Assembly (NCBI GenBank): GCA_035776675.1
Contig: DASTWO010000033.1
Location: forward strand, 431-64,430
Direction of reading: 5' to 3'
DNA: 64,000 bases
Source: Bacillales bacterium
Lineage (GTDB): Bacteria > Bacillota > Bacilli > Bacillales > DASSOY01
In this document: piece by piece, positions 8,551 through 39,235 of the stretch
How the letters are laid out: every line of letters begins with the position of its first letter
How positions within the stretch are numbered: the stretch's first letter is position 1
Notes under the pieces: model-generated
What the model saw: only the letters and a program-made list of their open reading frames with translations
Databases searched by the model: none
Told to the model about the DNA's origin: nothing
Program-made: the position numbers and the translations under genes

Positions 8551-8970
8551 ATGAATATCACTGGAAAGTTCATCGGCGGGATTGCCCTGGTTCTTCTTGG
8601 AGGGTGGTTGTTACTCGGTATGTTTGGTGTTCATCTCGGAGGCTTGATCGCTTTGTTGTTTGGCATCGTCCTCATCTGTTTCGGGGTGAAGAAGCTCAAA
8701 CAGGATCATAAGGTTCTGGGTGTGATTTCGTTGATTTTCGGTTTTATGTTTCTCGGCGGGTCGCTGCCATTCTTGATCAGTCTTGCTTTAGCAGCTGTGT
8801 GTATTTATTTCGGCTGGAAGTTGATTAAGCAAGAAAGACATCAATCGGAACCCGCTGCCGCTTATTCCGGCGACACGGAGTTTATGGATTACCGGAATGT
8901 GAAAGTGGAAGACAGCTTTGATCGCGAATGGGAAGACTTTCTGAGGAAGAATCCGAAGGATAACGATTGA
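8551..8970 (+). CDS. liaI: LiaI-like small membrane protein (putative membrane anchor for LiaH/PspA)
   Basis: Four hydrophobic helices followed by an acidic cytoplasmic tail. Sits immediately upstream of the PspA-family gene and downstream of the LiaR box. Confidence 0.6.
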   Translation: MNITGKFIGGIALVLLGGWLLLGMFGVHLGGLIALLFGIVLICFGVKKLKQDHKVLGVISLIFGFMFLGGSLPFLISLALAAVCIYFGWKLIKQERHQSEPAAAYSGDTEFMDYRNVKVEDSFDREWEDFLRKNPKDND

Positions 8971-25755: not shown

Positions 25756-25915
25756 ATTGTTTCCGCCTTTCTATGGTTCGTGGTTTCGTTAACTGCGTGA
25801 AAGAGATCGTTTGGTTCGTTACCCGCCGTGTCTTTTCATCTGTATTTTCTTTATTTTAAGTGATTTGCGCTGAAAATCATAACCCTTGTGCTGCGGGTTG
25901 CTTTTTATGCTCTAT

Positions 25916-25959: not shown

Positions 25960-25987
25960 CGATTTTTTTGAATAGAGGAGGTTGAAC

Positions 25988-26764
25988 GTGAATGAGCAAC
26001 TAACGGAGGTTTTCAAGGCGTTGGCCCATCCATACAGACAATCAATTCTGGATTTGTTGGCTGCAAGACCTATGACAACCGGTGAGGTAAGCGACCATTT
26101 TACAGAGGTTTCCCGATACGCTGTCATGAAACATTTGAATACACTTGTGGAAGCAAACCTTGTTGTGGCAAGGAAGAAGGGGCGTAAACGCTACAATTAT
26201 TTGAATGTCATGCCTTTGCAAATGATTAAGGAACGCTGGCTGAATGGTTATGATTCACTCATGGCTGAATCTCTATTGAATGTCAGAGAACTTTCCGAAA
26301 ACCCTGAGGAGGAGAAGATAATGGCTGAAAACTTGGAGAACCAATTGTTTGAAATCGAACAGGAAGTGCAAATTAAGGCCCCCAGACAAGACGTATTTCA
26401 TGCTTTGACCCATAAAATTAACGGATGGTGGTCGGAACGTTTGTTTAAGGATTCCGTAATGGAAGTGGAACCGCGGTTGGGCGGTAAGTTTATTGAGACA
26501 GGTGAAGACGGAAAGGCGGCATTGTGGGGAATGATTACCTACATTGTTCCGGATAGTGAAATTTGGTTGGATGGAAATTTGGGAATGCCGGGTCCGGTTA
26601 AAGGCCATTATCAGTATAAGCTAGAAGAACTGGACGAAGGTACAACCCAATTGAAATTATCCCATTCGGTAGTCGGGCCGCATGTCTCGGATTGGCGGAA
26701 GGACTACGAAAACGGCTGGAGAAGACTACTGGAAACAAAGTTGAAAGATTACCTTGAAAAATAA
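25988..26764 (+). CDS. ArsR/SmtB-family HTH regulator fused to an SRPBCC (AHSA1-like) ligand-binding domain
   Basis: FKALAHPYRQSILDLLAARPMTTGEVSDHF...VMKHLNTLVEANLV is an ArsR HTH. The C-terminal roughly 140 aa are SRPBCC-like. GTG start 7 nt after GAGGAGG (TTG 25982 is the alternative). Confidence 0.8.
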   Translation: MNEQLTEVFKALAHPYRQSILDLLAARPMTTGEVSDHFTEVSRYAVMKHLNTLVEANLVVARKKGRKRYNYLNVMPLQMIKERWLNGYDSLMAESLLNVRELSENPEEEKIMAENLENQLFEIEQEVQIKAPRQDVFHALTHKINGWWSERLFKDSVMEVEPRLGGKFIETGEDGKAALWGMITYIVPDSEIWLDGNLGMPGPVKGHYQYKLEELDEGTTQLKLSHSVVGPHVSDWRKDYENGWRRLLETKLKDYLEK

Positions 26765-26841
26765 AAGAATGGTTGATGACGGCTGGCTGGCTGGGGATTT
26801 CCAGTCAGTCTTTATTTTTCCTATTTTTCGACAGGCGTTCT

Positions 26842-26850
26842 TGGTATAAT
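26842..26850 (+). promoter_or_regulatory. Extended -10 element (TGGTATAAT) upstream of sigma factor 1
   Basis: TGnTATAAT match about 55 nt upstream of the proposed start at 26905. Confidence 0.45.
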
Positions 26851-26904
26851 CAAATTAATGATGAAATCCATTTTTGCCTTGAAATGGAGAACGGAGGAGA
26901 TCAC

Positions 26905-27624
26905 TTGGCTGGTGTGTTTGACAAACAGGTTTCCGAAGAATGCGAGTTCACGGCCGCCATTCAATCCTATCATGCCGATCTGTCACGTTATTGCCGTATG
27001 ATGACAGGAACCCCTTGGGATGCGGACGACCTCTTACAGGAAACGTTAATCAAGGCCTTTAAATCCGGATCTGTCTTAGAGAACCATCCCGCACCGAAAG
27101 CCTTTTTGTTTCGTGTTGCTACGAATACATGGATTGACCATTGTCGAAGGAACAAAGTTCCGGAAGATACATATGAAGATGAACAATTTGCCAATGGCAA
27201 TGATAAGTATGAATTTGAGGTTCGTGAGGCGTTGGAGACTCTTATTTACCGGTTGCCTCCGCGACAGGTGGCCATTGTTTTGCTGATGGATGTATTCGGA
27301 TTTTCCGCTAAATCCGCGGCTGCCATGATGGAGGTTACGGAAGGGGCGGTTAAGGCAGCTCTGCACCGTGCCCGTTCAACGTTGAAAAAGGTGAAAATAG
27401 AGGAAAAAAGGGAACAAATCCTTTTGAAATCAAAGAGTGCGGCCGAACTAGTCGAAATATTCTTGGAAGCGTTCCAACAACATGATGCTGTTGCCGTGAG
27501 CCGAGCGTATCTTTCTCTTCAGGATCATGGGGTCGAGGTCAAAAGGGTCTCGAGCGGGAAAATCCTTTCTTTTCAATTTCAGGATCCCGATGGCAATGTT
27601 TTCACTGTTACTGCGAAGGCCTGA
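26905..27624 (+). CDS. ECF-type sigma-70 family sigma factor (sigma-1) with a short atypical C-terminal extension
   Basis: Region 2: DADDLLQETLIKAF...PKAFLFRVATNTWIDHCRR. Region 4: LPPRQVAIVLLMDVFGFSAKSAAAMMEVTEGAVKAALHRARSTL. TTG start after GGAGGAG (the track ORF starts at 26773). The C-terminus ends ...ILSFQFQDPDGNVFTVTAKA. Confidence 0.85.
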   Translation: MAGVFDKQVSEECEFTAAIQSYHADLSRYCRMMTGTPWDADDLLQETLIKAFKSGSVLENHPAPKAFLFRVATNTWIDHCRRNKVPEDTYEDEQFANGNDKYEFEVREALETLIYRLPPRQVAIVLLMDVFGFSAKSAAAMMEVTEGAVKAALHRARSTLKKVKIEEKREQILLKSKSAAELVEIFLEAFQQHDAVAVSRAYLSLQDHGVEVKRVSSGKILSFQFQDPDGNVFTVTAKA

Positions 27625-27640
27625 ATTTTCTTTAATCCAT

Positions 27641-27669
27641 GCGTATCTTTTTTGATGCCAGTCTCGTTA
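27641..27669 (+). promoter_or_regulatory. ECF-type promoter P1 (GCGTATC-N17-CGTTA)
   Basis: GCGTATC 27641-27647, T-rich spacer, CGTTA 27665-27669. About 75 nt upstream of the VOC gene at 27745. The motif is shared with P2-P4. Confidence 0.55.
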
Positions 27670-27744
27670 ATAGAGTGAAGTTACCATAAGCAGCGGCAAC
27701 ATAGTGACCTCCTGTTGTCGCTGTGCCAAATGAGGAGGCAGAGA

Positions 27745-28509
27745 ATGAACTTTTTGCAGCTCAACAAGGTTTATTTACCGGTGAAAGACCTTGAGGACAC
27801 AGCAAAATGGTATCGGGATCAGTTTGGTTTAACAAAATCCTGGGAAGGCGAAGTGGACGGCCGTCAAGCAGCGGAACTTGCCTTTTCGGAGACTTCGTTC
27901 ACATTGATCGGCTCTGATCATGTCAATCGCTATTCTCACATTCCATTTAACTTCCATACGAATGAGATTGAAGCCGTCCGTGATTCATTAATGCGGAAGG
28001 GGAGTGTCGTAACGGATGTCATTGATGAAGGAGAAATGTATTGCTGTGACTTTTATGATCCTGAAGGAAACCGGATCGGGTTAGTTGAGGAAAAGAATGG
28101 GGCAACCGACCAGATGCAAGTGGGCGGAACCTTCTTGACCGTCCGAGACTTGGAAGATGCCATTAAATGGTACCGAAACAAGCTCGATTATGACTTTCAC
28201 TTTTTCAGTGTTACCGGAGGTGCTGGTTACATTGGCCAGACCCCGGAATATGTCCAGGAATTGACGATACGATATGCGCCTGTCAGCAGTGAATCATTTC
28301 AGACAAGATCAAGCCGGATGGCGATTGTGGAAACGCCTGAATTTTTCCCTCTCACCTACAAGGCGTATAGTATATTAAGTTCAAATATCGAGGAAGACTA
28401 TGAAACTTTGCGTTCCCGAGGAGTACATATCGTTCAGAAGTCCGATCAGAAGTTCACGTTTCAGGATGCAGACGGAAATGAAATAGAAATTGTGAAGGAA
28501 AAGCGCTAG
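27745..28509 (+). CDS. Two-domain VOC family protein (glyoxalase/bleomycin-resistance fold)
   Basis: RBS GAGGAGG. Domain starts VYLPVKDLEDTAKWYRDQFGL and TFLTVRDLEDAIKWYRNKLDY. Domain ends FYDPEGNRIGLV and FQDADGNEIEIV. Confidence 0.85.
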   Translation: MNFLQLNKVYLPVKDLEDTAKWYRDQFGLTKSWEGEVDGRQAAELAFSETSFTLIGSDHVNRYSHIPFNFHTNEIEAVRDSLMRKGSVVTDVIDEGEMYCCDFYDPEGNRIGLVEEKNGATDQMQVGGTFLTVRDLEDAIKWYRNKLDYDFHFFSVTGGAGYIGQTPEYVQELTIRYAPVSSESFQTRSSRMAIVETPEFFPLTYKAYSILSSNIEEDYETLRSRGVHIVQKSDQKFTFQDADGNEIEIVKEKR

Positions 28510-28705
28510 ATTATAAAAAAAGAGGGGATAACCATCAAACAGGGGGCACATTTCAATGTAAAGCGTCCAAATCCTGTTAGAAAAAAGTTGATGACAATGT
28601 TATGCCTCTTGGTGGTAATGACGGTTAAGAAAGGGAGCAGGTCACGATGAGTCATTTTTTTCAGAAAGGATGATAGATTTTTTCAAGCTATGGCATCTGT
28701 AGATT

Positions 28706-29470
28706 ATGGCACGAAAAAGAGGCGGCATTGTGGGGAAGGAATTGTTGGAAGTGAGAGGTTTCAAATCGGATGATGGCCGGGATAAAGGGCTTGTAGATAG
28801 AGCTCGGTCGGGAGACCGCGAAGCTTTCGGCGAATTGGTACGCCGGCACCGCGCCAAAGCTTACGGTTGGGCAAGTACTTTGGCTAATGACGCTCATTTG
28901 GCTGATGATATTGTTCAAGACGCTTTGATAGGGGCTTTTCTTCATGTTGGAGAGCTTATGGACAGTGACCGATTTGTGCCCTGGTTTCATAGAATTGTCC
29001 GTAACCAGGCATACATGAAGCTAAGGCGGGGCGGTCAATACGGAAAGGAAAGTCCGTTTTCAGCCCTCGAAGAACAAAATGGCAGCGAATCGAGCGATAT
29101 TGACCGAATTTTATTCCAACTTACTGTTTCGGTGGACGCCGATGAAAGTCTCGATCCGGCTGTTCGGCTGGTGAAGAAGGAAATGATCCGTGGCATTCAT
29201 GAGCTTCTCCATTGTTTAAGCCAACGGGAACGAAGCGTTTTTGAGGCCTTTTTCTTCCAGCAACTTTCACCCATTGAAATCGCACAATTATTTCAAACCC
29301 AAACCGGCAATGTTTACAATATCCTCTCACGTTCCAGGAGGAAAGTGCAACGGGAGCGGATTCGTGTCCATCTCAATGGTTTTGTCAGAAGGCGAAAAGA
29401 ACAGAAATTTCCCTCGAAGAAGACTTTGGCAAAACCGATCGAATTCTTTCAAGGAGAGGAAAGCAGATGA
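28706..29470 (+). CDS. Sigma-70 family (ECF-like) sigma factor (sigma-2)
   Basis: LVDRARSGDREAFGELVRRH, DDIVQDALIGAF, FVPWFHRIVRNQAYMKLRR (region 2). LSQRERSVFEAFFFQQLSPIEIAQLFQTQTGNVYNILSRSRRKV (region 4). The start codon is uncertain (alternatives GTG 28733, TTG 28745). Confidence 0.8.
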   Translation: MARKRGGIVGKELLEVRGFKSDDGRDKGLVDRARSGDREAFGELVRRHRAKAYGWASTLANDAHLADDIVQDALIGAFLHVGELMDSDRFVPWFHRIVRNQAYMKLRRGGQYGKESPFSALEEQNGSESSDIDRILFQLTVSVDADESLDPAVRLVKKEMIRGIHELLHCLSQRERSVFEAFFFQQLSPIEIAQLFQTQTGNVYNILSRSRRKVQRERIRVHLNGFVRRRKEQKFPSKKTLAKPIEFFQGEESR

Positions 29471-30432
29471 CCAAACAAGATGTCAGGCCGATGACGTGTA
29501 CTTCAGCAGCACAATCGATGTTTGCCGCAATACAGTATACCGACAAAAAGGATTTGTCGCTCGCCGAAGTAATGGGTTTCACCAGTCATGCATTCCGCAT
29601 TAACATTAACGCGGAAAATGTAGATGTAGCCGGGCCAACCGGGTATGAATGGAGAGATATCTTTCCGGAAGGACTTCGAAACCTGGGGTTTCAAACTGCA
29701 TATCGAGGAGCTCCTAATTTCACACCACCGACACCTAATGAGCTTTCCGAGGCAATTGAACTAGTTCAAAAAAGTATCGATAGAGGTGTTCCCGCGATTG
29801 CATGGGATTTGTTTATCCCCGAGTTTGGCCTGCTATACGGATATGACGATGATAAGCAAATCCTCATGGCGAAGGATTTCGAAAAAGAAGGAGAACTTGA
29901 CTACGAAAAATTAGGAAGAGGACAAATCGGAGAATTGTTTGTTCTTACGATTGAGGATTCGATCCCTATAGATAAAACCAGTTCATTAAAAGGCGCGCTG
30001 GAAATGATTCTGAACCATGCACACAAAAGGCAACATAAGCATGAAAAGCCACCCTATCAAAATGGGCTGGCCGGTTATGACGCATGGATTCAGGCATTTT
30101 CTAATCGAAGTGTCGACCCGTTCGGGAATGCTTACAACACATTAGTCGTTTCCGATGCCCGAAGGTATGCGGTTGATTTTTTAAGCGGGATTGTAGAAGA
30201 CGTTCAATATGAGGAAACTGTACGCCATTTAGCGTCTCGGTCTGCGGCTCATTACAAAAAGGGAAAAGATTCATTGGAAAAGCTTGCGGGTAAGTTTCCG
30301 TTTCCTGATGGAGGAAGCCCGAACGAGGGAGTGGAGGCTGAACTAGCGATCCAGCTGTTGTCCGAAGCCAAACAGGCCGAACAACAAGGCGTCGAGCTTC
30401 TGGAAGAAATGTATGATCGATTAAAAAATTGA
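29467..30432 (+). CDS. Cytoplasmic papain-like (BtrH-N/DUF4872-like, tentative) protein, translationally coupled to sigma-2
   Basis: ATGA overlap with the sigma-2 stop. No TM segment. Paralogous to 33014..34051, sharing MGFTSHAFRI/YGMTGIAFLI, RNLGF/ENLGI, SIDRGVPAIAWDL/AIDSGYPCFSFEL and LLYGYDDD/IVFGYNET. Confidence 0.6.
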   Translation: MTKQDVRPMTCTSAAQSMFAAIQYTDKKDLSLAEVMGFTSHAFRININAENVDVAGPTGYEWRDIFPEGLRNLGFQTAYRGAPNFTPPTPNELSEAIELVQKSIDRGVPAIAWDLFIPEFGLLYGYDDDKQILMAKDFEKEGELDYEKLGRGQIGELFVLTIEDSIPIDKTSSLKGALEMILNHAHKRQHKHEKPPYQNGLAGYDAWIQAFSNRSVDPFGNAYNTLVVSDARRYAVDFLSGIVEDVQYEETVRHLASRSAAHYKKGKDSLEKLAGKFPFPDGGSPNEGVEAELAIQLLSEAKQAEQQGVELLEEMYDRLKN

Positions 30433-30441
30433 AAGTATTGT

Positions 30442-30479
30442 ACTCAGGCTGTGGGTTGCTGCAGTCTGGGAGTTTTTTT
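30442..30479 (+). terminator. Probable rho-independent terminator
   Basis: Imperfect GC-rich stem (ACTCAGGCTG...CAGTCTGGGAGT) followed by TTTTTTT. Confidence 0.55.
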
Positions 30480-30485
30480 GTTCAG

Positions 30486-30512
30486 CCGTAACTTTTTTTC
30501 CTATTCTCGTTA
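30486..30512 (+). promoter_or_regulatory. ECF-type promoter P2 (CCGTAAC-N15-CGTTA)
   Basis: CCGTAAC 30486-30492, T7 tract, CGTTA 30508-30512. About 38 nt upstream of the GyrI-like gene. Confidence 0.5.
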
Positions 30513-30549
30513 GTAGGATGAGTATTCAATTCTCAAGGAGGCAATATCA

Positions 30550-31029
30550 ATGGAAGTGAAAATTGTTGAAAAAGAGGCATTTCAGCTGGTCGGCCTTGCC
30601 ATCAAGACAAAGGGGGACGGCGACCCTTCGACAAATGATATCTCTAAGCTGTGGGATCGGTTCGATGCAGCAAGCTCTCAAATTGAACACAGCATCAAGC
30701 CCGAAATCAAATTTGGCCTCATGACTTTTCCGGATCATTGGAAACACGGGGAGCCTTTTCAATACATGGCGGGTGTCGAAGTGAATCAATTTGAAAGTCT
30801 TCCTGAAGATATGGAAAGCGCAGAACTCCCTAAGCAGCAATATGCTGTGATTCATTACAGAGGGAAAATTTCGGGTATCGGCGTAGCCTATGATTACTTC
30901 TACCGAGAATGGCTCCCGAAGTCGGGATATGAGTTCGGGAACAACTTTGAGATGGAATACTATGATGGGAAATTCTATGGCCGCGACAACCCCGAATCAG
31001 AAATCTCCTTTTATTTTCCGGTAAAATAA
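30550..31029 (+). CDS. GyrI-like small-molecule-binding domain protein
   Basis: MEVKIVEKEAFQLVGLAIKT...FQYMAGVEV...YAVIHYRG...EFGNNFEMEYYD...ISFYFPVK is the typical GyrI-like/AraC-effector-binding (SbmC-like) pattern. Confidence 0.85.
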   Translation: MEVKIVEKEAFQLVGLAIKTKGDGDPSTNDISKLWDRFDAASSQIEHSIKPEIKFGLMTFPDHWKHGEPFQYMAGVEVNQFESLPEDMESAELPKQQYAVIHYRGKISGIGVAYDYFYREWLPKSGYEFGNNFEMEYYDGKFYGRDNPESEISFYFPVK

Positions 31030-31046
31030 AATTTTCTTAGCAGTCA

Positions 31047-31076
31047 GCGTATCTTTTTCCAAGAGTAATGTGTTTA
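31047..31076 (+). promoter_or_regulatory. ECF-type promoter P3 (GCGTATC-N17-TGTTTA) upstream of sigma-3
   Basis: GCGTATC 31047-31053, T-rich spacer, TGTTTA 31071-31076 (degenerate -10). Confidence 0.45.
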
Positions 31077-31111
31077 TCTAGTGAATGAAGCATTGCAGGA
31101 GGTTATGAAAA

Positions 31112-32053
31112 GTGACAAAAGAAGACTTATCCCAACTCAGCCATCCATTACGAGATCTGGAGAAAGAATTTCAGTTGCTGGTGGAGCCCCATCGCCCAGC
31201 GTTGTGGCGTTATTGTCGGATGATGACAGGTTCGCCATGGGAGGCGGAGGATCTTGTTCAAGAGACGCTGATGAAGACTTATGCCACACTTCCGAAACTG
31301 TGGCAACCAACCATTCCTAAAGCTTTCCTATTTCGAATCGCCACCAACACCTGGCTGAATCAATGTCGAAAGGCGAAGCGTCTGGTTGATGAACCTTGGG
31401 AGGAAGAAGATTCCATTGATAGGGACACGGACCCGTTCGAGGCAAGGGAAAATATCGAATTTCTTGTCAGGCATTTATCGCCGCGACAGACAGTCGTGTT
31501 TCTTTTAACAGAGGTATTTGATTTCAAAGCGCGTGAGGTGGCGGAAATGGCTGGAACAACAGAGGGCACGGTTAAGGCACTCTTGCACAGAGCTCGGAAA
31601 AAGTTAGAGGAGAAAACCGGAGAAACTTTCTTTCAGAACGAAGATACGCCGGCATTTAGCAAGGGGGAAACTGCTGTCGTTGAAGCCTATGTAGAAGCCT
31701 TTAACCGCCGAGATCCGGATGCAATTGCCAAATTAATGGATGATCGCGTAGTGTGCGATATCGTTCATATCGCAGAAGAATACGGAAAAGACGTCGTTCG
31801 TCAGAACTCACTGGAAGACTGGTCCAGAGATCCGATGCCTATGCAAACGGATGTAAAGGTATTGTGGAACAAGCCGGTATTTGCCGTAATGGGAGAGAAG
31901 AAGGGTCAGAAAGTGCTGTACGACCTGATCGAACTTGAAATTGAAGACGGCAAAATCGTCAAAAAGAAAGATTATTATTTCTGTCAAGATTTATTGACGG
32001 CAGCGGCAGAAGCATTAGATGTTCCCGCACATCTTAATGGGTACAGTTTCTAG
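31112..32053 (+). CDS. ECF-type sigma factor (sigma-3) with a C-terminal SnoaL/NTF2-like domain (SigJ/ECF41-like architecture)
   Basis: GTG start 9 nt after AGGAGG. Region 2: AEDLVQETLMKTY...PKAFLFRIATNTWLNQCRK. Region 4: LSPRQTVVFLLTEVFDFKAREVAEMAGTTEGTVKALLHRARKKL. This is followed by about 130 aa beginning AVVEAYVEAFNRRDPDAIAKLMDD (NTF2-like). Confidence 0.85.
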   Translation: MTKEDLSQLSHPLRDLEKEFQLLVEPHRPALWRYCRMMTGSPWEAEDLVQETLMKTYATLPKLWQPTIPKAFLFRIATNTWLNQCRKAKRLVDEPWEEEDSIDRDTDPFEARENIEFLVRHLSPRQTVVFLLTEVFDFKAREVAEMAGTTEGTVKALLHRARKKLEEKTGETFFQNEDTPAFSKGETAVVEAYVEAFNRRDPDAIAKLMDDRVVCDIVHIAEEYGKDVVRQNSLEDWSRDPMPMQTDVKVLWNKPVFAVMGEKKGQKVLYDLIELEIEDGKIVKKKDYYFCQDLLTAAAEALDVPAHLNGYSF

Positions 32054-32106
32054 TTATCGGTAAAAAACTTTGGCCACCAAAAAAATAAAAACTTTTTCTA
32101 AATCGA

Positions 32107-32135
32107 CCGTATCTTTTCGGTCGGTTTCTTCGTAA
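32107..32135 (+). promoter_or_regulatory. ECF-type promoter P4 (CCGTATC-N17-CGTAA) in front of the 12-gene VOC operon
   Basis: CCGTATC 32107-32113, CGTAA 32131-32135. 19 nt upstream of the ATG at 32154. Confidence 0.55.
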
Positions 32136-32153
32136 GTAGTGTGGAAGGTGAAA

Positions 32154-32564
32154 ATGACTGAGTTGAAAGGAGTTGGCGCATTGAAATTCATAAAGCGAGT
32201 GGACAGTATTTTCATTCCTGTCAAGGACATTAAGGAATCGGAAGAATGGTACAAAAAAGTTTTTGATTTAACAGTGGTTTATCGAAGTGAAGACAACATC
32301 GGTTTTCGATTTAACGAACCGTGGCCGTTGAAAACCGGGTTATCCCTTTACAAAAGTGAGGAAGCCGGAAAGCCTTCCCCTGTCCATTTTAATTTTTACA
32401 CAGAAGATGTAGATGGATTTTATCAATACCTTTCCGATGAGGGAGTCGAGCCTGATGAGGTTCAAAGTGAAGACGGGATGCGCTTTTTCGATTTCCATGA
32501 CCCGAGCGGAAACCGGTTCAACGTTGTGACCTTTAAGGAAATTGCGCTGGAACATATTGATTAA
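32154..32564 (+). CDS. Single-domain VOC family protein
   Basis: RBS GGAAGGTGA. IFIPVKDIKESEEWYKKVFDL ... FFDFHDPSGNRFNVV. Confidence 0.85.
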   Translation: MTELKGVGALKFIKRVDSIFIPVKDIKESEEWYKKVFDLTVVYRSEDNIGFRFNEPWPLKTGLSLYKSEEAGKPSPVHFNFYTEDVDGFYQYLSDEGVEPDEVQSEDGMRFFDFHDPSGNRFNVVTFKEIALEHID

Positions 32565-32599
32565 TCCCGAATGGGGTGCGAAATATTGGAGGGGTTAAA

Positions 32600-33004
32600 T
32601 TGAAATTGCGTGTCGGAGGAATTTTCATTCCGGTTACCGATTTGGAACGGTCAATTGAGTGGTATATGGAGTGCTTGAACCTAAAGCTCGTTGATCGCTG
32701 GCCGGAAGGTGCCGGTGCTGGCTTTACATTTGAAAATGGGGAAGCCGGCCTGGGGCTAGTCAAGGTGGAGACGAAGCAACCAACGGAGTTCAGAGTTTCC
32801 TCGCGTTATCAGAACTGCTATTACAACTTCGAACCTGAAAATGTCCAGGAAATGCATCAATTTCTGAAAGGTAGAGGTGTGAAAGTGACTGAGATTGAAG
32901 ATCACGGTCCCATGGAAGGGTTTGATTTTTTCGATCCTGATGGGAATCCCTTCAGTGCAGTTCGGGATAAACCACAATCACCTTATTATCATCCGTTTCA
33001 GTAA
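32600..33004 (+). CDS. Single-domain VOC family protein
   Basis: TTG start 5 nt after GGAGGGG (the track ORF starts at GTG 32576). IFIPVTDLERSIEWYMECLNL ... FDFFDPDGNPFSAV. Confidence 0.85.
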   Translation: MKLRVGGIFIPVTDLERSIEWYMECLNLKLVDRWPEGAGAGFTFENGEAGLGLVKVETKQPTEFRVSSRYQNCYYNFEPENVQEMHQFLKGRGVKVTEIEDHGPMEGFDFFDPDGNPFSAVRDKPQSPYYHPFQ

Positions 33005-33013
33005 AGGGGAGAG

Positions 33014-34051
33014 ATGATGGCAGGCAAAACATTGGATGAACTGAAATTTTCTTATTGTGACCATACGCTCATCGGCAGTTTGAAGGCCAGCCTCGATTTT
33101 CTGGGGATCGACGTGTCCGAGGATTGGTTATACGGAATGACCGGGATTGCTTTTCTCATCGTCACTGATGAAAAGGTGTCTACAGATGCTGTAGCGTATG
33201 GCTATGAGCCAGGTATGGTATTTCGCCTCGCCGAAAATCTGGGGATCCGAGTCAAGGGCATCCACCGTGTTGAAGATCCTCATGATCGTGAAGGGTTAAT
33301 CCAATCAGCCTGGTCGCAAGCACGCCGCGCCATAGATAGCGGATATCCGTGTTTCAGCTTTGAATTGGAGGAACAGCACGAGCATGCCATTGTTTTCGGC
33401 TATAATGAAACCGGTTACCTAACGCATGGTTGGCATCAAAGGGGAACTCGCTCCATTCCTTGGGAACTGCTGGGTCAAAGCATGTGCCCTTGTGAAAGGT
33501 GTGAAGACCAACGGAATAAAAGTAATGTCGTACCCACAAAAAGTTTCATTGATCTTCATTGGGTTGAACCCGGACCGAAGGAAGACCCGGCGAGGGCTTT
33601 TGAACAAATGCTTTCTTTTGTATTAGCCGTTTCCTTTGAACGTCTTTGGGTCTACAGAGGTTTTGATGGAGGTTCGTCAGCTTACGATCATTTGATTCAA
33701 GCCGTTGAGGAAGGCACCGCGATAGGAAAACACATTGGTTATAACTTGAGTGCATGGAGTGAGGCGCGGAGCCATGCACCGGGATTTCTTGAACAAGTCC
33801 ATGAACATTTGGAAGGCAATGCTGATGGTTCATTGGACCGGGCAACCGCAGCTTACCGAGACGTTGCAGAATTATTAGAAGAAGCGTCAGAACTGTATCC
33901 GTGGAGACAGCCGATGGAACCTGTCGGTGTGAATGAAACAAGCCGTAAGGCGGCAGCCCTTTTGAAAAGAGAGAAAGATGCCGAAATCAATGTTTTAGAT
34001 GCATTGAAGGAACTTCACAACACTTTAAATAGAAAGGAATCTGCCAAATGA
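33014..34051 (+). CDS. Papain-like (BtrH-N/DUF4872-like, tentative) protein, paralog of 29467..30432
   Basis: Shares motifs with 29467..30432 (listed there). Candidate nucleophile Cys in SYCDHTLIGSL. No TM segment. Stop overlaps the next gene. Confidence 0.6.
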   Translation: MMAGKTLDELKFSYCDHTLIGSLKASLDFLGIDVSEDWLYGMTGIAFLIVTDEKVSTDAVAYGYEPGMVFRLAENLGIRVKGIHRVEDPHDREGLIQSAWSQARRAIDSGYPCFSFELEEQHEHAIVFGYNETGYLTHGWHQRGTRSIPWELLGQSMCPCERCEDQRNKSNVVPTKSFIDLHWVEPGPKEDPARAFEQMLSFVLAVSFERLWVYRGFDGGSSAYDHLIQAVEEGTAIGKHIGYNLSAWSEARSHAPGFLEQVHEHLEGNADGSLDRATAAYRDVAELLEEASELYPWRQPMEPVGVNETSRKAAALLKREKDAEINVLDALKELHNTLNRKESAK

Positions 34052-34842
34052 CAAAAGCCAATCAAACAAGTTCAGTACAACCGCGTGTGAGTTGCGCCTT
34101 TATTCACGTCAGTGATTTGAAGAATTCAGTGGTATTTTACAGCATGATCTTTGGGCTGCCGGTATTGAAAGAGCGTCTTAATGGAGGCCCCGTCTATGGA
34201 GTCGATATTGAAGGTGGAACAGGTTTGCTTTTGGATGACAACAGTGTGAACAAGCAACATCCTGATTGGGATGAGAGTCAGCAAAATTTATGTATGGTGG
34301 AAACCAAGGATATTGAGGCGGCGTATGAACACGTCAAAAACCTGGAGGCGGAAATTGTGTCCGAACCCGAGAATCCCCATCCCGGATTGGCTTTCTTTCG
34401 TTTTCGTGACCCGGACGGCAATGTTCTTATGGTCACGCAAAGTGATTATGAAGGAGAACCCCTTGCCCGGGAGGAAAAGACCCCGATCCACAACCGGATT
34501 AAAGCCATTTTTATTAATGTCACCGATATGGAGAGAGCCGTCAAGTGGTACGAAGGGTTATTCAGTGTGTCCATGGCCCAAAATCATAATGCTCCCGTGC
34601 TTAATATTCCAACAGAAGGCGGGTCAGACCTTTTATTGGATGCCAACCGCTTTTTGCAGGGCGATGATTACAAAACATTGCTGATGTTAGACACAGACGA
34701 TGTCGATGAAGCTTATCGATTTTTGAAAAGCCGCGATGTCGAGATTTTCAAGGAAATTGAAAGATACGACGATGTTTCATTTTTCACCTTCAAAGATCCG
34801 GACGGCAATGTCCTGATGGTTTGCCAGGAACACAAGAAATAA
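34048..34842 (+). CDS. Two-domain VOC family protein
   Basis: AFIHVSDLKNSVVFYSMIFGL...FRFRDPDGNVLMV and IFINVTDMERAVKWYEGLFSV...FTFKDPDGNVLMV. Confidence 0.85.
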   Translation: MTKANQTSSVQPRVSCAFIHVSDLKNSVVFYSMIFGLPVLKERLNGGPVYGVDIEGGTGLLLDDNSVNKQHPDWDESQQNLCMVETKDIEAAYEHVKNLEAEIVSEPENPHPGLAFFRFRDPDGNVLMVTQSDYEGEPLAREEKTPIHNRIKAIFINVTDMERAVKWYEGLFSVSMAQNHNAPVLNIPTEGGSDLLLDANRFLQGDDYKTLLMLDTDDVDEAYRFLKSRDVEIFKEIERYDDVSFFTFKDPDGNVLMVCQEHKK

Positions 34843-34862
34843 ATAGATGAAGGGAGGAAGGC

Positions 34863-35216
34863 ATGGAGATGATTCGAAAGGGTGTTAACGGCATTTTGGT
34901 TTACTGCCGTGACCTGCATAAGTCTGCAAGATGGTATTCCCAACTGGGGTTTACGATAGGGGAACATGACTTTGATCACTTCGTTGATTTGGAAGTAGAC
35001 GGGAATTATGTATTGCATCTGGTGAAAAAGGAGGACTTTACATCGCTGGCACCCCCTGCTTTCACTTTCGATACACCGGACATTGAGGCGACTTTTGAAA
35101 GGTTGAAAGAAAACGGAGTGGACATCATCGGAGAGTTGAACCGACACTCGAACCATTCGGAGTTCAGCTTCAGAGACCTTGACGGGAATACATTGATGTT
35201 TACAAAGTGGGATTGA
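34863..35216 (+). CDS. Single-domain VOC family protein
   Basis: ILVYCRDLHKSARWYSQLGFT ... FSFRDLDGNTLMF. RBS GGGAGGAAGG. Confidence 0.8.
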   Translation: MEMIRKGVNGILVYCRDLHKSARWYSQLGFTIGEHDFDHFVDLEVDGNYVLHLVKKEDFTSLAPPAFTFDTPDIEATFERLKENGVDIIGELNRHSNHSEFSFRDLDGNTLMFTKWD

Positions 35217-35254
35217 ATCGGTTCTAAGGTGCCGAGAAAAAGGGGGATGGCAGG

Positions 35255-36001
35255 ATGATTCAGTATATCGACGCCGTTTTTTTGCCTGTATTCAATTTGG
35301 AAGAATCATTGAAATGGTATAAGAAACACTTTGGGATCAAAGTGAATTGGCGGGATACAAACGGATGGAACGCCGCCGGGGTAGGATTTAATTCCGGTGC
35401 TATGGTGATGATGGAGCGTGAGACTATCAACCACAGTGATCATATTCGTTTTAACTTTTATACGCCAGATGTGATAACCTGCTATCAATCATTAGAAGAG
35501 AATGACGTTGAGCTTAATCAATTGGTTCAATATGAAGACATGGATTGTTTCGATTTCAAGGATCCGAGCGGGAACTGGATTGGGATTGTAGGCCGTTGGA
35601 CAGAAAAGGGAATAAGTCCGGGAGAGTTCGTTGGCCCCGATGCTATTTTCTTGCCTGTGAGTAACATCGAGCTGGCCATAGAATGGTATCAAGCACTTCT
35701 GGGGGGCGAATTTGATTTGGCAACAGATCTTCATTCGCAATATCCGTTCCGGTATGGTTTCCACAAGAACGGGGAAGACCGGGACCATCCGCGGTGGTTT
35801 AATTTAGTGGAAACCCCAAATCGTTACCCTCAATCACATATACCTTTTAACATTCAAATCCAGGATGCTTCGAAAGTCCACCGTGATTTACAGGGAAAGG
35901 GTATTTCAGTTACAGATATCACGGATACTGGAGCCTTCCGTTGGTTTAACTTTGTTGATCCGGATGGTAATGAAATCGGATTTGTTGAAGGCGGAAGATA
36001 G
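35255..36001 (+). CDS. Two-domain VOC family protein
   Basis: VFLPVFNLEESLKWYKKHFGI...FDFKDPSGNWIGIV and IFLPVSNIELAIEWYQALLGG...FNFVDPDGNEIGFV. Confidence 0.85.
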   Translation: MIQYIDAVFLPVFNLEESLKWYKKHFGIKVNWRDTNGWNAAGVGFNSGAMVMMERETINHSDHIRFNFYTPDVITCYQSLEENDVELNQLVQYEDMDCFDFKDPSGNWIGIVGRWTEKGISPGEFVGPDAIFLPVSNIELAIEWYQALLGGEFDLATDLHSQYPFRYGFHKNGEDRDHPRWFNLVETPNRYPQSHIPFNIQIQDASKVHRDLQGKGISVTDITDTGAFRWFNFVDPDGNEIGFVEGGR

Positions 36002-36037
36002 GTTTGAACTAGACCTTAATAAATTGGAGGGACCATT

Positions 36038-36433
36038 GTGTCGATAAAGAAACCGTATGAGATTTCCTATATTCAAATCCCCGTTAAGGATCCAAAGAAA
36101 TCAGCTGATTTTTATGAAGGAGTACTCGGGATGACCTATTCGTTTCCTTATAATCCGGCGGATCGGGCGGCTTTTATGGAATTCCAAGGGAACATCGCCC
36201 TGGGGCTCATTCAATCTGAGACCATTCCAGACCTGACCTTTCGTGATACTTTGGGCAATGTCAATGCCGTTATTCAGTTCACCGTTCGTGATATTCAAGA
36301 TTTCTACAATTCGTTAAAGGAACAAAATGTGCCGGTCGGTCCAATGATCTTCAAAGAAGACGGCGGATATAATTTTACAGTTCAAGATCCTGACGGACAT
36401 GTATCCCATGTATGGGGTGGTTGGCCGGAATAG
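36038..36433 (+). CDS. Single-domain VOC family protein
   Basis: GTG start after GGAGGGA. IQIPVKDPKKSADFYEGVLGM ... FTVQDPDGHVSHV. Confidence 0.85.
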   Translation: MSIKKPYEISYIQIPVKDPKKSADFYEGVLGMTYSFPYNPADRAAFMEFQGNIALGLIQSETIPDLTFRDTLGNVNAVIQFTVRDIQDFYNSLKEQNVPVGPMIFKEDGGYNFTVQDPDGHVSHVWGGWPE

Positions 36434-36463
36434 TAAAATCTTTTGAAAGGATGTTGAGGAACT

Positions 36464-36949
36464 GTGTGTGAGTTAATTAAAAGACCAGAAACGAAAGTTG
36501 CCGGGTTACGGGTACAATGCGATACTCTGGAAGAATTCTCGATCGAGATTCCGAAGGTATTTGACAAGCTGGACGAGTGTCTTGATGGAATTCCGAATAT
36601 TGTTGACTCCAGCGGCAGGATTGGAATCCATTTGGCAGAAGATGAAAACAACGCGAATGCAGAGGCGGCGGATTACGGTTATCTGGTTTGTGTTGAAGTG
36701 AGCAGCTTCGAAGATATCCCAACAGATTTTGAAACAGACACCATTCCAGCCGGCAAATTTGCGGTAAATAGCCATCAAGGTCCGGTCAATCCCAACATTC
36801 ATCATTCCTATGCCGCTCTTTATAATTGGATGTCGGAACATGGACACGAAGAGCTGCCGGTTGGGCACGTTCTTGAACATTATGATGAGCGCTATGATCG
36901 TAAGAACTTCAGCGGCGAAATGGAAATTCTCATTCCAGTAAAATCATAA
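36464..36949 (+). CDS. GyrI-like small-molecule-binding domain protein
   Basis: ETKVAGLRVQC...YGYLVCVEVSSFEDIP...KFAVNSHQG...HVLEHYDERYD...MEILIPVK. Confidence 0.8.
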   Translation: MCELIKRPETKVAGLRVQCDTLEEFSIEIPKVFDKLDECLDGIPNIVDSSGRIGIHLAEDENNANAEAADYGYLVCVEVSSFEDIPTDFETDTIPAGKFAVNSHQGPVNPNIHHSYAALYNWMSEHGHEELPVGHVLEHYDERYDRKNFSGEMEILIPVKS

Positions 36950-37015
36950 GGTTTTCCTTTGAAGATGAGAAAGTAAACCGAAGGGTACAACCTTTAAAAT
37001 AAGGGAGACAACATA

Positions 37016-37513
37016 ATGAAAATGAGACTTGAACCAGTGGAAAGGTTTAAGGTTGTCGGAATTCGAATCATCGATGAGATGGAAAACCTCAATGCTCGAA
37101 TCCAACAGGCAGCCAGAGAGCTGCAAGAGCGGATGCATGAAATTCGCGGAGTGAGAAATCCGGATGTCCTGTACGGAATATCACCGCCAAACTATAAAGG
37201 CAATCCGGGACCTCTCGATTTTTATGTCTGTGTGGAAGTGGATCCTTTCGAGAACTTGCCTTATGGAATGGTCAACATCACGATAGACCCGGAACTGTAT
37301 GCCGTTTGTACATATGAGAAAGATTCAATGAATAACAAAGGGAATGCGTATGATTTCACGACTACGTGGCTACAGGAAAAAGGATATGAGTACTTCGATG
37401 CTGCCTATTATTTTGAGGTTTACAATGTCAACGGCGAATGGACTAATTTAGAAGATTTGGATAATACCCATAATCGAATCAAAGTTTATTCACCGGTTAG
37501 AAAAGGCGGGTAA
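37016..37513 (+). CDS. GyrI-like small-molecule-binding domain protein
   Basis: FKVVGIRI...DFYVCVEVDPFENLP...YAVCTYE...YYFEVYN...IKVYSPVR. RBS AAGGGAGA. Confidence 0.8.
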   Translation: MKMRLEPVERFKVVGIRIIDEMENLNARIQQAARELQERMHEIRGVRNPDVLYGISPPNYKGNPGPLDFYVCVEVDPFENLPYGMVNITIDPELYAVCTYEKDSMNNKGNAYDFTTTWLQEKGYEYFDAAYYFEVYNVNGEWTNLEDLDNTHNRIKVYSPVRKGG

Positions 37514-37516
37514 TCC

Positions 37517-38296
37517 ATGAATTCTTTATTTGAAAAGATCGGAACAGTGTGTGTTCCGGTAAAAGATGTTCAAAAATCAGCGGATTGGTATACAGAGAAA
37601 CTGGGAATGCGGGTTTGTCGGAAAGATGAAGCTCAAGCGGAACTCGAGGTTTGCGGAGGAGAAACCGTCTTGATCCTTAAGGCAGCTGAACCATTTAACC
37701 CCGTTAATTACTTGCATCGTAAGGGAATGGTCACGCATTTTAATTTCAATACGTTGGATGCCGAACTCGCTCATTTGATGCTCAAAGACAAAGAAGTTGG
37801 GGTGACTGATGTCCTCGATGCAGATTTTCTCAAATGTTTCGCTTTTCGGGACCTGGACGGAAATGTTCTCAGTGTTTGTTATGAAAAAGAGCATTCTATG
37901 TTCTATCAGCCTATCACGGAAACTAGCATTTCTTTATTCGAACGGATTGAAGCGGTTTTTATCCTCGTTCGGGATTTGCGAAATACCCTAGACTGGTATC
38001 TTCATCTGCCCGGGCTGGAATTGTTAAATGACTGGAAGCAAGGAGCGGACTTGAAAGTGGGGAACGGAGAAACGATTGTGACTCTCATTCAAGTAGATGA
38101 TTTCACCCCGCGGCAAAACAGTTATTTTGAATTTACCACCGCCAATATGAAGAAGACGCATTCTTATTTAAAAAAGATGGGGGCGAGCGTTTCTGAAATT
38201 GATTCGACTCCTCAAGAAACTTCCTGTCGGGTTCAGGACCCTGAAGGCAATATTTTCGGTGTGAGGCGTAGAAAAGTAGCGGCCCCAACCCTATAA
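37517..38296 (+). CDS. Two-domain VOC family protein
   Basis: VCVPVKDVQKSADWYTEKLGM...FAFRDLDGNVLSV and VFILVRDLRNTLDWYLHLPGL...CRVQDPEGNIFGV. Confidence 0.85.
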   Translation: MNSLFEKIGTVCVPVKDVQKSADWYTEKLGMRVCRKDEAQAELEVCGGETVLILKAAEPFNPVNYLHRKGMVTHFNFNTLDAELAHLMLKDKEVGVTDVLDADFLKCFAFRDLDGNVLSVCYEKEHSMFYQPITETSISLFERIEAVFILVRDLRNTLDWYLHLPGLELLNDWKQGADLKVGNGETIVTLIQVDDFTPRQNSYFEFTTANMKKTHSYLKKMGASVSEIDSTPQETSCRVQDPEGNIFGVRRRKVAAPTL

Positions 38297-38346
38297 TGAG
38301 AGATCTTCAAAAAATCACTTAATATAGATTTGAAAGGAGAATGAAG

Positions 38347-38811
38347 ATGAAGGAAGAACAATTATTTGAGCAAATGAAAATGTGGCGTGGTTGGACAGTA
38401 GAGCTTCTTAAAACCGTTCCCCATGGGATTGTTGATGAAATCCCGAATGGATTTCGGAACAATATTCGGTGGAACGCAGGCCATATCCTGGCAGGGTGGG
38501 ACCATACGATGTTCCCTGCAGTGGGAATGGAAAGGCAACTGCCGTTATCCTATCACCTTATGTTTCCGAGAGGCAGTAAACCTGCCGATTGGACTGAAGA
38601 ACCGCCATCGATGGATGAATTGATTCAGCGACTTGAAGAGCAGCCGCAACAGATTGAAGAAGCGTGTAAAGGGCACTTGGAGGATCCGCTCGAAGAGCCG
38701 TTTCTGCATATGACCACCCTGGGAGAAATGTTTGTTTTTCACATGGCCCATGAGAACCTGCACGTCGGTACGATAAACAGTATGAAAAAAACCCTTGAAA
38801 CAGGTGAATAA
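38347..38811 (+). CDS. DinB-superfamily (DinB_2-like) protein
   Basis: WRGWTVELLKTVP...RWNAGHILAGWDH...FVFHMAHENLHVGTI shows the His-triad pattern of DinB-like helical bundles. Start taken at the second ATG, after AGGAGA. Confidence 0.75.
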   Translation: MKEEQLFEQMKMWRGWTVELLKTVPHGIVDEIPNGFRNNIRWNAGHILAGWDHTMFPAVGMERQLPLSYHLMFPRGSKPADWTEEPPSMDELIQRLEEQPQQIEEACKGHLEDPLEEPFLHMTTLGEMFVFHMAHENLHVGTINSMKKTLETGE

Positions 38812-38815
38812 TTTC

Positions 38816-39235
38816 ATGTCAAAACCGCAAATCTCGAAAATCGCCACCGTGGAAATTCCGGTTTCGGATTTGGACCGGTCCGTGAAATGGTACACTGAGA
38901 AATTGAATCTCCATCTTGATTTCAAAGGTGACCAAAACGCGATGTTACTCTTTAATAAGAAAGGCACACCCTCAATTTTTCTTGTAGAAACTCATGAAGA
39001 AAGCAGGCTTTCCTTTCTCAATTCAAACACCGGCGTTACACATAGTGTCATTGACTTCTATACAGAGGATTTGAAAGGGTTCTATGAATATCTGAAGGGA
39101 CAAGATGTAGAGGTAGGGTCTTATAATGCGGATCCGGATGATCCAAACGGATTTGGCGGATTTGGTTTTAAAGATCCTGACGGCAATTGGCTCAGTGCCT
39201 GTAATGTAGATCATGACAAGTCGATTCCTGAGTAA
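38816..39235 (+). CDS. Single-domain VOC family protein
   Basis: VEIPVSDLDRSVKWYTEKLNL ... FGFKDPDGNWLSA. Start at the internal ATG, 4 nt after the preceding stop. Confidence 0.85.
   Translation: MSKPQISKIATVEIPVSDLDRSVKWYTEKLNLHLDFKGDQNAMLLFNKKGTPSIFLVETHEESRLSFLNSNTGVTHSVIDFYTEDLKGFYEYLKGQDVEVGSYNADPDDPNGFGGFGFKDPDGNWLSACNVDHDKSIPE

Follow-up and report, generated by a model that had tools for sequence, protein, structure and literature searches.

Sigma factors with extracytoplasmic function (ECF) make up the third most common type of signal transduction in bacteria, and, to our knowledge, many ECF groups are still without a known promoter, signal or regulon. A stretch of 64,000 nucleotides from a Bacillales bacterium (contig DASTWO010000033.1 of assembly GCA_035776675.1, positions 431 to 64,430 of the forward strand; hereafter the window, with positions counted from its first letter) contains an island in which two related ECF sigma factors, sigma-1 and sigma-3, stand among genes for VOC/glyoxalase, GyrI-like and DinB_2 proteins, and in which four intergenic regions carry variants of one bipartite motif. 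Are these four sites promoters, and which of the two sigma factors would read each of them? An earlier reading of the letters alone (the sequence-only reading) had taken the sites as a shared ECF-type promoter that both sigma factors could use. The explanation that we judge best overall, and moderately probable on comparative sequence evidence, is a single family-specific ECF promoter type combined with a wiring in which sigma-1 and sigma-3 would serve different sites.

Four intergenic sites share one promoter architecture

The motif had been placed at 27641, 30486, 31047 and 32107 (sites 1 to 4; Table 1), and all four copies are present there. They lie on the + strand in intergenic DNA with a gene start 30-70 nt downstream, and each consists of CGTAWCTTTT, a -35 block with its T-tract (GTAWC plus four to seven T at all four sites), followed by a YGT -10 (three times CGT, once TGT). 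Over both strands of the 64-kb window, CGTAWCTTTT occurs four times against 0.24 expected, and none of 100 shuffles of the window reaches four copies; the full bipartite pattern has no match in the window beyond sites 1-4. The spacer measures 17 nt (N17) at sites 1, 3 and 4 and 15 nt (N15) at site 2, where the usual rigid ECF spacing of about 16-17 nt is lacking. Additionally, an A/T-rich AAnTTTTCT stretch stands about 17 nt upstream of the -35 at sites 1, 3 and 4 (27624-27640, 31030-31046 and 32090-32106); it matches an A-tract/T-tract upstream of the promoters from other genomes described below, and may be an UP-like element.

The motif precedes sigma-3 homologues in several phyla

More than 1,100 homologues of sigma-3 were found, and 80 genomic loci encoding them were fetched. 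In 26 of these loci, nearly all of the closest orthologues included, the sigma gene is preceded by CGTAWC-N17-YGT at a distance of 50-113 nt, and the 26 extend to metagenome-assembled genomes (MAGs) of Ignavibacteria, Bacteroidota and Longimicrobiales. Their spacer is 17 nt without exception, though 16-18 nt were allowed in the search. In 1.24 Mb of foreign loci there are 30 occurrences of the strict pattern, 25 of them immediately upstream of the sigma gene. Among the remaining loci, most show the same architecture with a variant -35 (CGTATG, CGTAAG, CGTACC, CGCACC and others), again at N17; with these variants, the tabulated foreign promoters number 60 across several phyla, every one of them N17. 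Features that the search had left unconstrained are also conserved, namely the C before CGTA, the T-tract, the extended -10 with the bases after YGT, and the A-tract/T-tract upstream. The TGTTTA -10 of site 3 recurs in the closest sigma-3 orthologues (L001-L007 and L015). The resulting family consensus is (C)CGTA(T/A)C with a T-tract, a rigid N17 and YGT(T/C)(T/A). No further copies of the motif were found within 8 kb of sigma-3 orthologues in other genomes, where the VOC/GyrI island is not syntenic.

These observations agree with the sequence-only reading on two points, that the motif is an ECF-type promoter, its -35 with T-tract, spacer and GT-containing -10 being conserved at foreign sigma loci, and that the copy before sigma-3 is a positive autoregulatory one, as sigma-3 homologues in 60 loci have it upstream as well. 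Beyond this island, the conservation argues that an entire ECF clade uses the motif as its autoregulatory promoter.

A position weight matrix was trained on the 26 promoters from other genomes only and used to score about 128,000 window positions. It ranks 31048 first (site 3, 29.5 bits), 27642 second (site 1, 22.4 bits) and 32108 third (site 4, 19.7 bits), and 30487 (site 2) sixth with 17.7 bits when a 15-nt spacer is allowed. Since its training set holds foreign sites alone, this ranking is independent of the pattern by which the sites had first been noticed. That the sites are ECF promoters of this sigma family, with autoregulation at site 3, is on this comparative evidence highly probable. 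The next matrix matches were rejected as regulon members and put down to chance, 43350(-) and 38181(-) being intragenic and 25827(+) having a -10 without GT. The last of these (25827-25862) consists of CCGTGTC with a T-tract, scores 16.6 bits with a 15-nt spacer and stands upstream of an ArsR-HTH/AHSA1 fusion gene at 25982-26764; it is probably a chance occurrence.

Two sigma residues covary with the promoter sequence

The aligned sigma proteins of the 60 foreign loci were searched for columns that separate the promoter classes (residue numbers are those of sigma-3). The cleanest -35 column is residue 155, in the recognition helix of region 4.2 (TEGxVK): Lys or Arg goes with a last base C in 39/39 loci, and where the last base is G or A the residue is Tyr, His, Gln, Asn or Thr, with one ambiguous exception. 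The cleanest -10 column is residue 83 in region 2.4 (ATNTW-L/I-N/D), with Asn at TGT promoters in 15/15 loci and Asp at CGT promoters in 45/45. Sigma-3 has Asn83 and its own site 3 reads TGTTTA, and sigma-1 has Asp83, the residue that goes with the CGT of sites 1, 2 and 4. In a neighbour-joining (NJ) tree, the Asn83 sigmas fall into two separate clades.

Both columns align with residues that contact DNA in solved structures. Specifically, Lys155 aligns with R171 of E. coli sigmaE, which in the crystal structure hydrogen-bonds the G opposite the C of GGAAC, and Lys or Arg at that position correlates with that C (PMC1540707). Asn83 aligns with N92 of M. tuberculosis sigmaH, which hydrogen-bonds the template C of the G:C pair in the GTT -10 (bioRxiv 10.1101/534826), and this base pair adjoins the first -10 base that tracks residue 83. 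By analogy, the last C of the -35 would be read by Lys155, which is present in both sigmas, and sigma-1 and sigma-3 should therefore both accept a CGTATC -35. The sequence-only reading had pointed to near-identical regions 4.2 and 2.4 in the two proteins. For region 4.2 the point stands, the -35-reading Lys155 being common to both; for region 2.4 the conclusion that both would read one motif is not supported as it stands, since the one [DN] position in this stretch is the residue that covaries with the first -10 base.

One alternative, in line with the sequence-only reading, holds that sigma-1 and sigma-3 read all four sites interchangeably, their DNA-reading regions being nearly identical. 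Lys155 is common to both in a nearly invariant recognition helix, the -35 block and T-tract are identical at all four sites, and ECF paralogues with similar promoters often cross-talk. On the other hand, Asn or Asp at residue 83 separates TGT from CGT without exception in the 60 loci, the window sites split accordingly, and paralogues within one genome have diverged promoters (L001 vs L069, L005 vs L045, L009 vs L044). We thus regard fully interchangeable reading as unlikely, and some cross-reading as likely because the -35 is shared. In the same-genome pairs, to which L011/L063 can be added, the -35 endings differ (ATC vs ATGG or AAGG) and the -10 variants do as well, a divergence that suggests selection for insulation.

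An orthologous island keeps the pattern of CGT and TGT sites

A contig of a Bacillales MAG (L081) carries an orthologous island with the same VOC, DinB and GyrI-like genes, including an orthologous operon; its sigma-1 is 75% and its sigma-3 81-85% identical to those of the window. The three best matrix matches in L081 are the counterparts of site 1 (L081:8225, CCGTATC-N17-CGTTTG, 26.9 bits), site 3 (L081:11137, GCGTATC-N17-TGTTTA) and site 4 (L081:12225, CCGTATC-N17-CGTCAG, 23.4 bits), so that the order CGT, TGT, CGT is kept. In alignments of the window with L081 the -35 and -10 blocks are kept, and the spacer retains 6/17 positions at site 1 and 9/17 at site 3.

The same comparison bears on a different account of site 4, namely that it is mainly a terminator or attenuator hairpin behind sigma-3 and resembles a promoter in appearance only. 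A hairpin at 32100-32127 does overlap the site (-13.5 kcal/mol, z -4.1), with a partly T-rich tail behind it. In L081, however, where both the -35 and the -10 block are kept, the corresponding hairpin has two mismatches without compensating changes and a value of -7.9 kcal/mol (z -0.15), and our terminator scan does not call the hairpin of the window. Because it is not kept in L081, the hairpin is not the selected feature, and a terminator at site 4 was rejected on that ground. We consider this account quite improbable, with the proviso that terminator and promoter roles are not mutually exclusive.

Two further observations concern the sigma genes of L081. The sigma-3 orthologue (L081:11201-12152) is split into two overlapping open reading frames, reflecting a frameshift or an assembly error, and sites 3 and 4 around it are intact. 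Additionally, L081:8765-9715 encodes a third sigma of the family (316 aa, His155/Asp83) with a promoter of its own, CCGTATG-N17-CGTTAT (8690-8740). This protein agrees with the residue-promoter rule and was recognised only after the rule had been derived. Its place is taken in the window by the unrelated sigma-2 unit, which suggests that the island is being rearranged, with sigma genes swapped in and out.

Sigma-1 is linked to CGT promoters and carries an unusual extension

The most likely start of sigma-1, corrected here, is the TTG at 26905, with a ribosome-binding site GGAGGA at 26893; the protein is 42% identical to sigma-3. Upstream, a terminator is followed by an extended -10 of the TGnTATAAT type, and this layout is kept in 6/6 sigma-1 loci (window, L081, L082, L083/L084, L085 and L086), which upholds the earlier suggestion of a sigma-A-like promoter as a second input. 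In the five other sigma-1 loci, a CCGTATC-N17-CGT promoter (24-29 bits) lies directly downstream of sigma-1 and is followed by VOC genes, with an equivalent of site 1 behind the sigma-1 orthologues of L082, L083, L085 and L086; site 4, too, corresponds to this sigma-1-linked promoter. GyrI-like and DinB_2 genes come after the sigma-1-linked VOC genes in L085, and sigma-1-linked operons are present in both L085 and L086. All five aligned sigma-1 orthologues (L081-L083, L085, L086) have Asp83 together with Lys155. A more distant member of the sigma-1 family (L087) has CCCGTACC-N17-CGTTAT upstream of a VOC-sigma operon. Within the fetched flanks of 6-8 kb, no sigma-3 homologue was found in L082-L086, that is, in four of the five other sigma-1 loci. 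Because a CGT promoter and VOC genes follow sigma-1 in loci without a sigma-3 homologue in these flanks, a sigma-1-type protein is the most economical reader of the CGT promoters, and site 1 is a putative conserved sigma-1 target.

Sigma-1 has a short C-terminal extension that is shared by its whole family (P0121-P0172), with 140 homologues of 225-260 aa. We therefore rejected an accidental fusion made by deletion, the architecture being common to all 140, and judging from this family sigma-1 is not a broken gene. Profile comparisons relate the linker and first helix of the extension to the sigma-3 family's first SnoaL helix (92% probability, E 5e-7) and its final 55 residues to the C-terminal half of a VOC module (97% probability, E 1.3e-11); similarity at the DNA level to the VOC genes of the island supports a VOC-derived C-terminus. 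The AlphaFold model of sigma-1 (mean predicted local distance difference test score 88) folds the extension as helix-helix-three strands, and a fold search with this model returned ECF sigma cores only, with no match for the extension.

The C-terminus (27400-27624) thus appears as a chimera of one SnoaL-like helix and a VOC half-module (F.F.DPDGN.FTV), an arrangement of which no description was found in the literature searched. The sigma-1 family genes are always followed by a VOC gene under a family promoter. With a VOC gene as the conserved target of sigma-1, it is conceivable that the half-module pairs with the VOC protein or shares its ligand. Inside sigma-1, GCGTATCTTTC at 27505 was considered as a promoter relic and rejected, as it lacks a -10 and is coding sequence for the VOC-type helix 'RAYLSL'.

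The truncated SnoaL part gives some ground for the view that sigma-3 alone drives all four sites and that sigma-1, with most of its SnoaL domain replaced, is inactive or serves as a decoy or regulator. Sigma-1 does lack most of that domain, and in ECF41 deletion of the full extension abolishes activity (PMC3426412, PMC7730460). Against this, L082-L086 keep the CGT promoter and VOC genes after sigma-1 with no sigma-3 homologue in the fetched flanks, and in L081 the sigma-3 gene is apparently frameshifted, yet sites 1 and 4 are intact. A system run by sigma-3 alone is, in our judgement, very improbable.

A proposed layered circuit with separate roles for sigma-1 and sigma-3

The arrangement that we propose assigns the sites according to residue 83. 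Sigma-1 (Asp83) would be made from the housekeeping, sigma-A-type extended -10 promoter, and its activity would be gated post-translationally through its unusual extension. Once active, it would fire the CGT promoters, that is, site 1 before the VOC gene, site 4 before the twelve-gene operon and, weakly, site 2, whose transcripts would cover the GyrI-like gene and read on into sigma-3. Sigma-3 (Asn83) would fire its own TGT promoter at site 3 in a positive feedback loop, and transcripts from site 3 would also read into the operon, there being no strong terminator after sigma-3. As to this division of labour between sigma-1 and sigma-3, we hold the chances to be even.

Site 2 is the least regular of the four. 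The sequence-only reading had counted it as a copy of the shared promoter motif; its coordinates and motif were right, and its 15-nt spacer is off the rule, with no counterpart in the orthologous island L081. Spacer changes are poorly tolerated by ECF sigmas (bioRxiv 10.1101/534826). On the other hand, its -10 with the bases downstream (CGTTAGTAGgat) resembles site 4 and sigma-1-linked promoters elsewhere (CGTnAGTAG / CGTTATTAGGGT), and it is the sole promoter candidate between the terminator at 30443-30470 and the GyrI-like gene. Site 2 is probably a real promoter, to judge from these sequence features, and probably a weak one because of the off-rule spacer.

Several points weigh against the wiring proposed here. 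Site 2 departs from the N17 that all 60 foreign promoters hold. At site 4, the spacer (32114-32130) is identical to L081:12232-12248 at 15/17 positions, a degree of conservation that hints at some further constraint. A possible departure from the Lys/Arg155 rule is L038, with Arg and either CGAACG at N17 or CCGAAC at N18. The link of Asp/Asn with C/T is a correlation in autoregulatory promoters, with which the use of CGT by Asn sigmas and of TGT by Asp sigmas remains compatible, and the NJ tree is crude, leaving the number of independent Asp/Asn switches uncertain. The regulons of sigma-3 homologues elsewhere were viewed through 16-kb loci, and sigma-1 is a putatively active sigma.

Finally, the motif could be an operator for a DNA-binding regulator such as the ArsR-AHSA1 protein (25982-26764), whose gene adjoins the island, or a duplicated intergenic relic, the island units being paralogous, and this we regard as extremely improbable, because the asymmetric, bipartite element has a spacer of rigid length (17 nt) and unconserved sequence, keeps its orientation towards the downstream gene and its distance from it, precedes sigma genes in 60 loci with no ArsR-AHSA1 homologue at that position, and varies together with sigma residues for which solved structures show DNA contacts.

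Returning to the proposed wiring, its strongest form is a joint claim, that the circuit is layered, that residue 155 (Lys versus Tyr/His) sets the last -35 base and residue 83 (Asp versus Asn) the first -10 base, and that the sigma-1 extension is of an undescribed type and coupled to VOC proteins. We put this forward as a tentative and, taken as a whole, doubtful proposition. If it holds, sigma activity would be coupled to the detoxification enzyme that it induces, and there would be a readable 'code' for a large uncharacterised ECF clade.

Genes and terminators of the island

The features of the island are collected in Table 1. Domain searches bore out the gene assignments of the sequence-only reading (ECF sigma-1 and sigma-3, VOC/glyoxalase, GyrI-like and DinB_2). 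The SnoaL-like extension of sigma-3 matches PF12680 (SnoaL_2) with E 1.1e-4 and 23.1 bits, under the 27-bit cut-off and over the first 41 positions only; several sigma-3 homologues have a precomputed PF12680 match. No Rfam family matches anywhere in the window.

Table 1. Positions of the sites, genes and terminators of the island in the window
Feature	Position	Strand	Description
Terminator, then sigma-1 promoter	26785-26810, then 26842-26850	+	Terminator followed by extended -10 TGGTATAAT; sigma-A-type (TGnTATAAT)
Sigma-1	26905..27624	+	ECF sigma; Lys155-type region 4.2, Asp83-type region 2.4; short C-terminal extension
Site 1	27641..27670	+	GCGTATC with T-tract, N17, CGTTAA; predicted start ~27677; before two-domain VOC gene
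VOC/glyoxalase gene	27745..28509	+	Two-domain; downstream of site 1; orthologue inside the L081 operon
Sigma-2/unassigned-gene unit	28706..30432		Sigma-2 is an ECF sigma unrelated to sigma-1/sigma-3
Strong intrinsic terminator	30443..30470	+	-18 kcal/mol, z -3.9; ends sigma-2 unit and shields site 2 from upstream transcription
Site 2	30486..30513	+	CCGTAAC with T7, N15, CGTTAG; before GyrI-like gene
GyrI-like/Cass2 gene	30550..31029	+	Downstream of site 2
Site 3	31047..31076	+	GCGTATC with T-tract, N17, TGTTTA; predicted start ~31083; before sigma-3
Sigma-3	31112..32053	+	ECF sigma; SnoaL-like C-terminal extension; Lys155, Asn83
Site 4	32107..32136	+	CCGTATC with T-tract, N17, CGTAAG; predicted start ~32143; before VOC/GyrI-like/DinB operon
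Twelve-gene operon	32181..39235	+	8 VOC (5 single-domain, 3 two-domain), 2 GyrI-like, 1 DinB_2, 1 of an unassigned family (33014-34051)

For the first gene of the operon, the sequence and the N-termini of orthologous VOC genes (MKFIKRVDSIF...) point to the TTG at 32181 as the most likely start, with a ribosome-binding site AAAGGAG at 32166-32172; the same N-termini speak against starts at 32139 or 32154. With this start, the leader of a site 4 transcript would be about 38 nt long. In the terminator scan, neither the interval from the GyrI-like gene to site 3 nor that from sigma-3 to the operon holds a convincing terminator, so that transcription begun at sites 2 and 3 should continue into the operon. 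The proteins encoded at 29467-30432 and 33014-34051 are distant paralogues (23% identity over their full length, E 1e-6) with no Pfam or NCBIfam match; the former lies downstream of sigma-2, the expected place of an anti-sigma factor, and the latter inside the VOC operon.

Discussion

The sigma family described here appears widespread and uncharacterised, and the logic of its circuit, an autoregulated ECF sigma with a target operon, is ordinary. What the analysis adds is a testable promoter consensus for a clade with members in many Bacillales and, outside that order, in MAGs of Ignavibacteria, Bacteroidota and Gemmatimonadota. Cultured bacteria such as Camelliibacillus cellulosilyticus, Bacillus haikouensis and Pseudalkalibacillus caeni have the family too, and Radiobacillus kanasensis and Falsibacillus pallidus are examples of genomes with Asn-type or Asp-type sigmas. 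Additionally, residues 83 and 155 emerge as candidate specificity determinants at DNA-contacting positions, which would be useful for regulon prediction and for the design of orthogonal sigma/promoter pairs, and the clade becomes linked to clusters of VOC, GyrI-like and DinB proteins. As such proteins typically bind or detoxify small molecules, the regulon probably responds to a toxic compound.

Canonical ECF promoters include GGAACTT-N16-TCAAA of E. coli sigmaE and TGAAAC-N16-CGTA of B. subtilis SigW. The sites in the window follow the same grammar, in which G-x-A-A/T-C is followed by T-rich sequence, the spacer is of rigid length and the -10 contains GT, and they share positive autoregulation. 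They differ in their -35 core, which is CGTATC or CGTAAC and not GAAC, and in a first -10 base that switches between C and T with Asp or Asn in region 2.4. We take the -35 here to be a variant (G-T-A-W-C) of the canonical GGAAC plus T-rich element.

Fused SnoaL-like regulatory extensions are also known from ECF41, with B. licheniformis Ecf41Bli and M. tuberculosis SigJ as examples. As would be the case here, the ECF41 regulon is very small, comprising the neighbouring gene behind a group-specific promoter (TGTCACA-N16-CGTC); these sigmas have a DGGGK motif, and their neighbours are COE genes (for carboxymuconolactone decarboxylases, oxidoreductases or epimerases; PMC3426412). In its layout sigma-1, which is not autoregulated and has its target promoter at the neighbouring gene, is similar to the >ECF> >COE> contexts of that group (PMC3426412). 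In contrast to ECF41, however, the promoter here is different, DGGGK is found in neither sigma-1 nor sigma-3, and the neighbours are VOC, GyrI-like and DinB proteins. In line with this, the ECF41 model TIGR02957 gives 78.8 bits against a cut-off of 323, and the match to SigJ is weak (E 3.6e-6). For the SnoaL-extension groups ECF205, ECF294 and ECF295, a literature search returned passing mentions only; the ECF group classification places ECF294 in Proteobacteria/Acidobacteria (Casas-Pastor et al. 2021), and the promoter motif may already be listed in that classification.

With ECF41, the closest characterised family is ECF56 (M. tuberculosis SigG/Rv0182c, S. venezuelae SVEN_4562 and S. tsukubaensis SigG1), whose members combine an ECF core with a C-terminal SnoaL-like domain, as the sigmas here appear to do, and likewise have no obvious anti-sigma factor. 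Proteins of the glyoxalase/VOC family abound in the ECF56 regulon too, and conservation of the ECF56 promoter extends over large distances (bioRxiv 10.1101/2020.01.30.927608). SigG-type models are also the best NCBIfam matches of both window sigmas, with scores far under the cut-offs for sigma-3 (110.5 bits vs 264.75 for TIGR02960 and 130.2 vs 240 for NF006089) and for sigma-1 (98.9 and 118.5 bits, respectively), so that neither score places them within ECF56. ECF56 is marked by the promoter CGATGAGTT-N14-GGTC and by an MPP(F/Y/L) motif just after sigma-4 (bioRxiv 10.1101/2020.01.30.927608), whereas the promoter here is CCGTATC-N17-YGT and the sigma-3 sequence has no MPP motif. Autoregulation also sets the two apart, as SigG1 of ECF56 was not seen to autoregulate (PMC7730460), whereas the present clade nearly always has its motif upstream of its own sigma gene.

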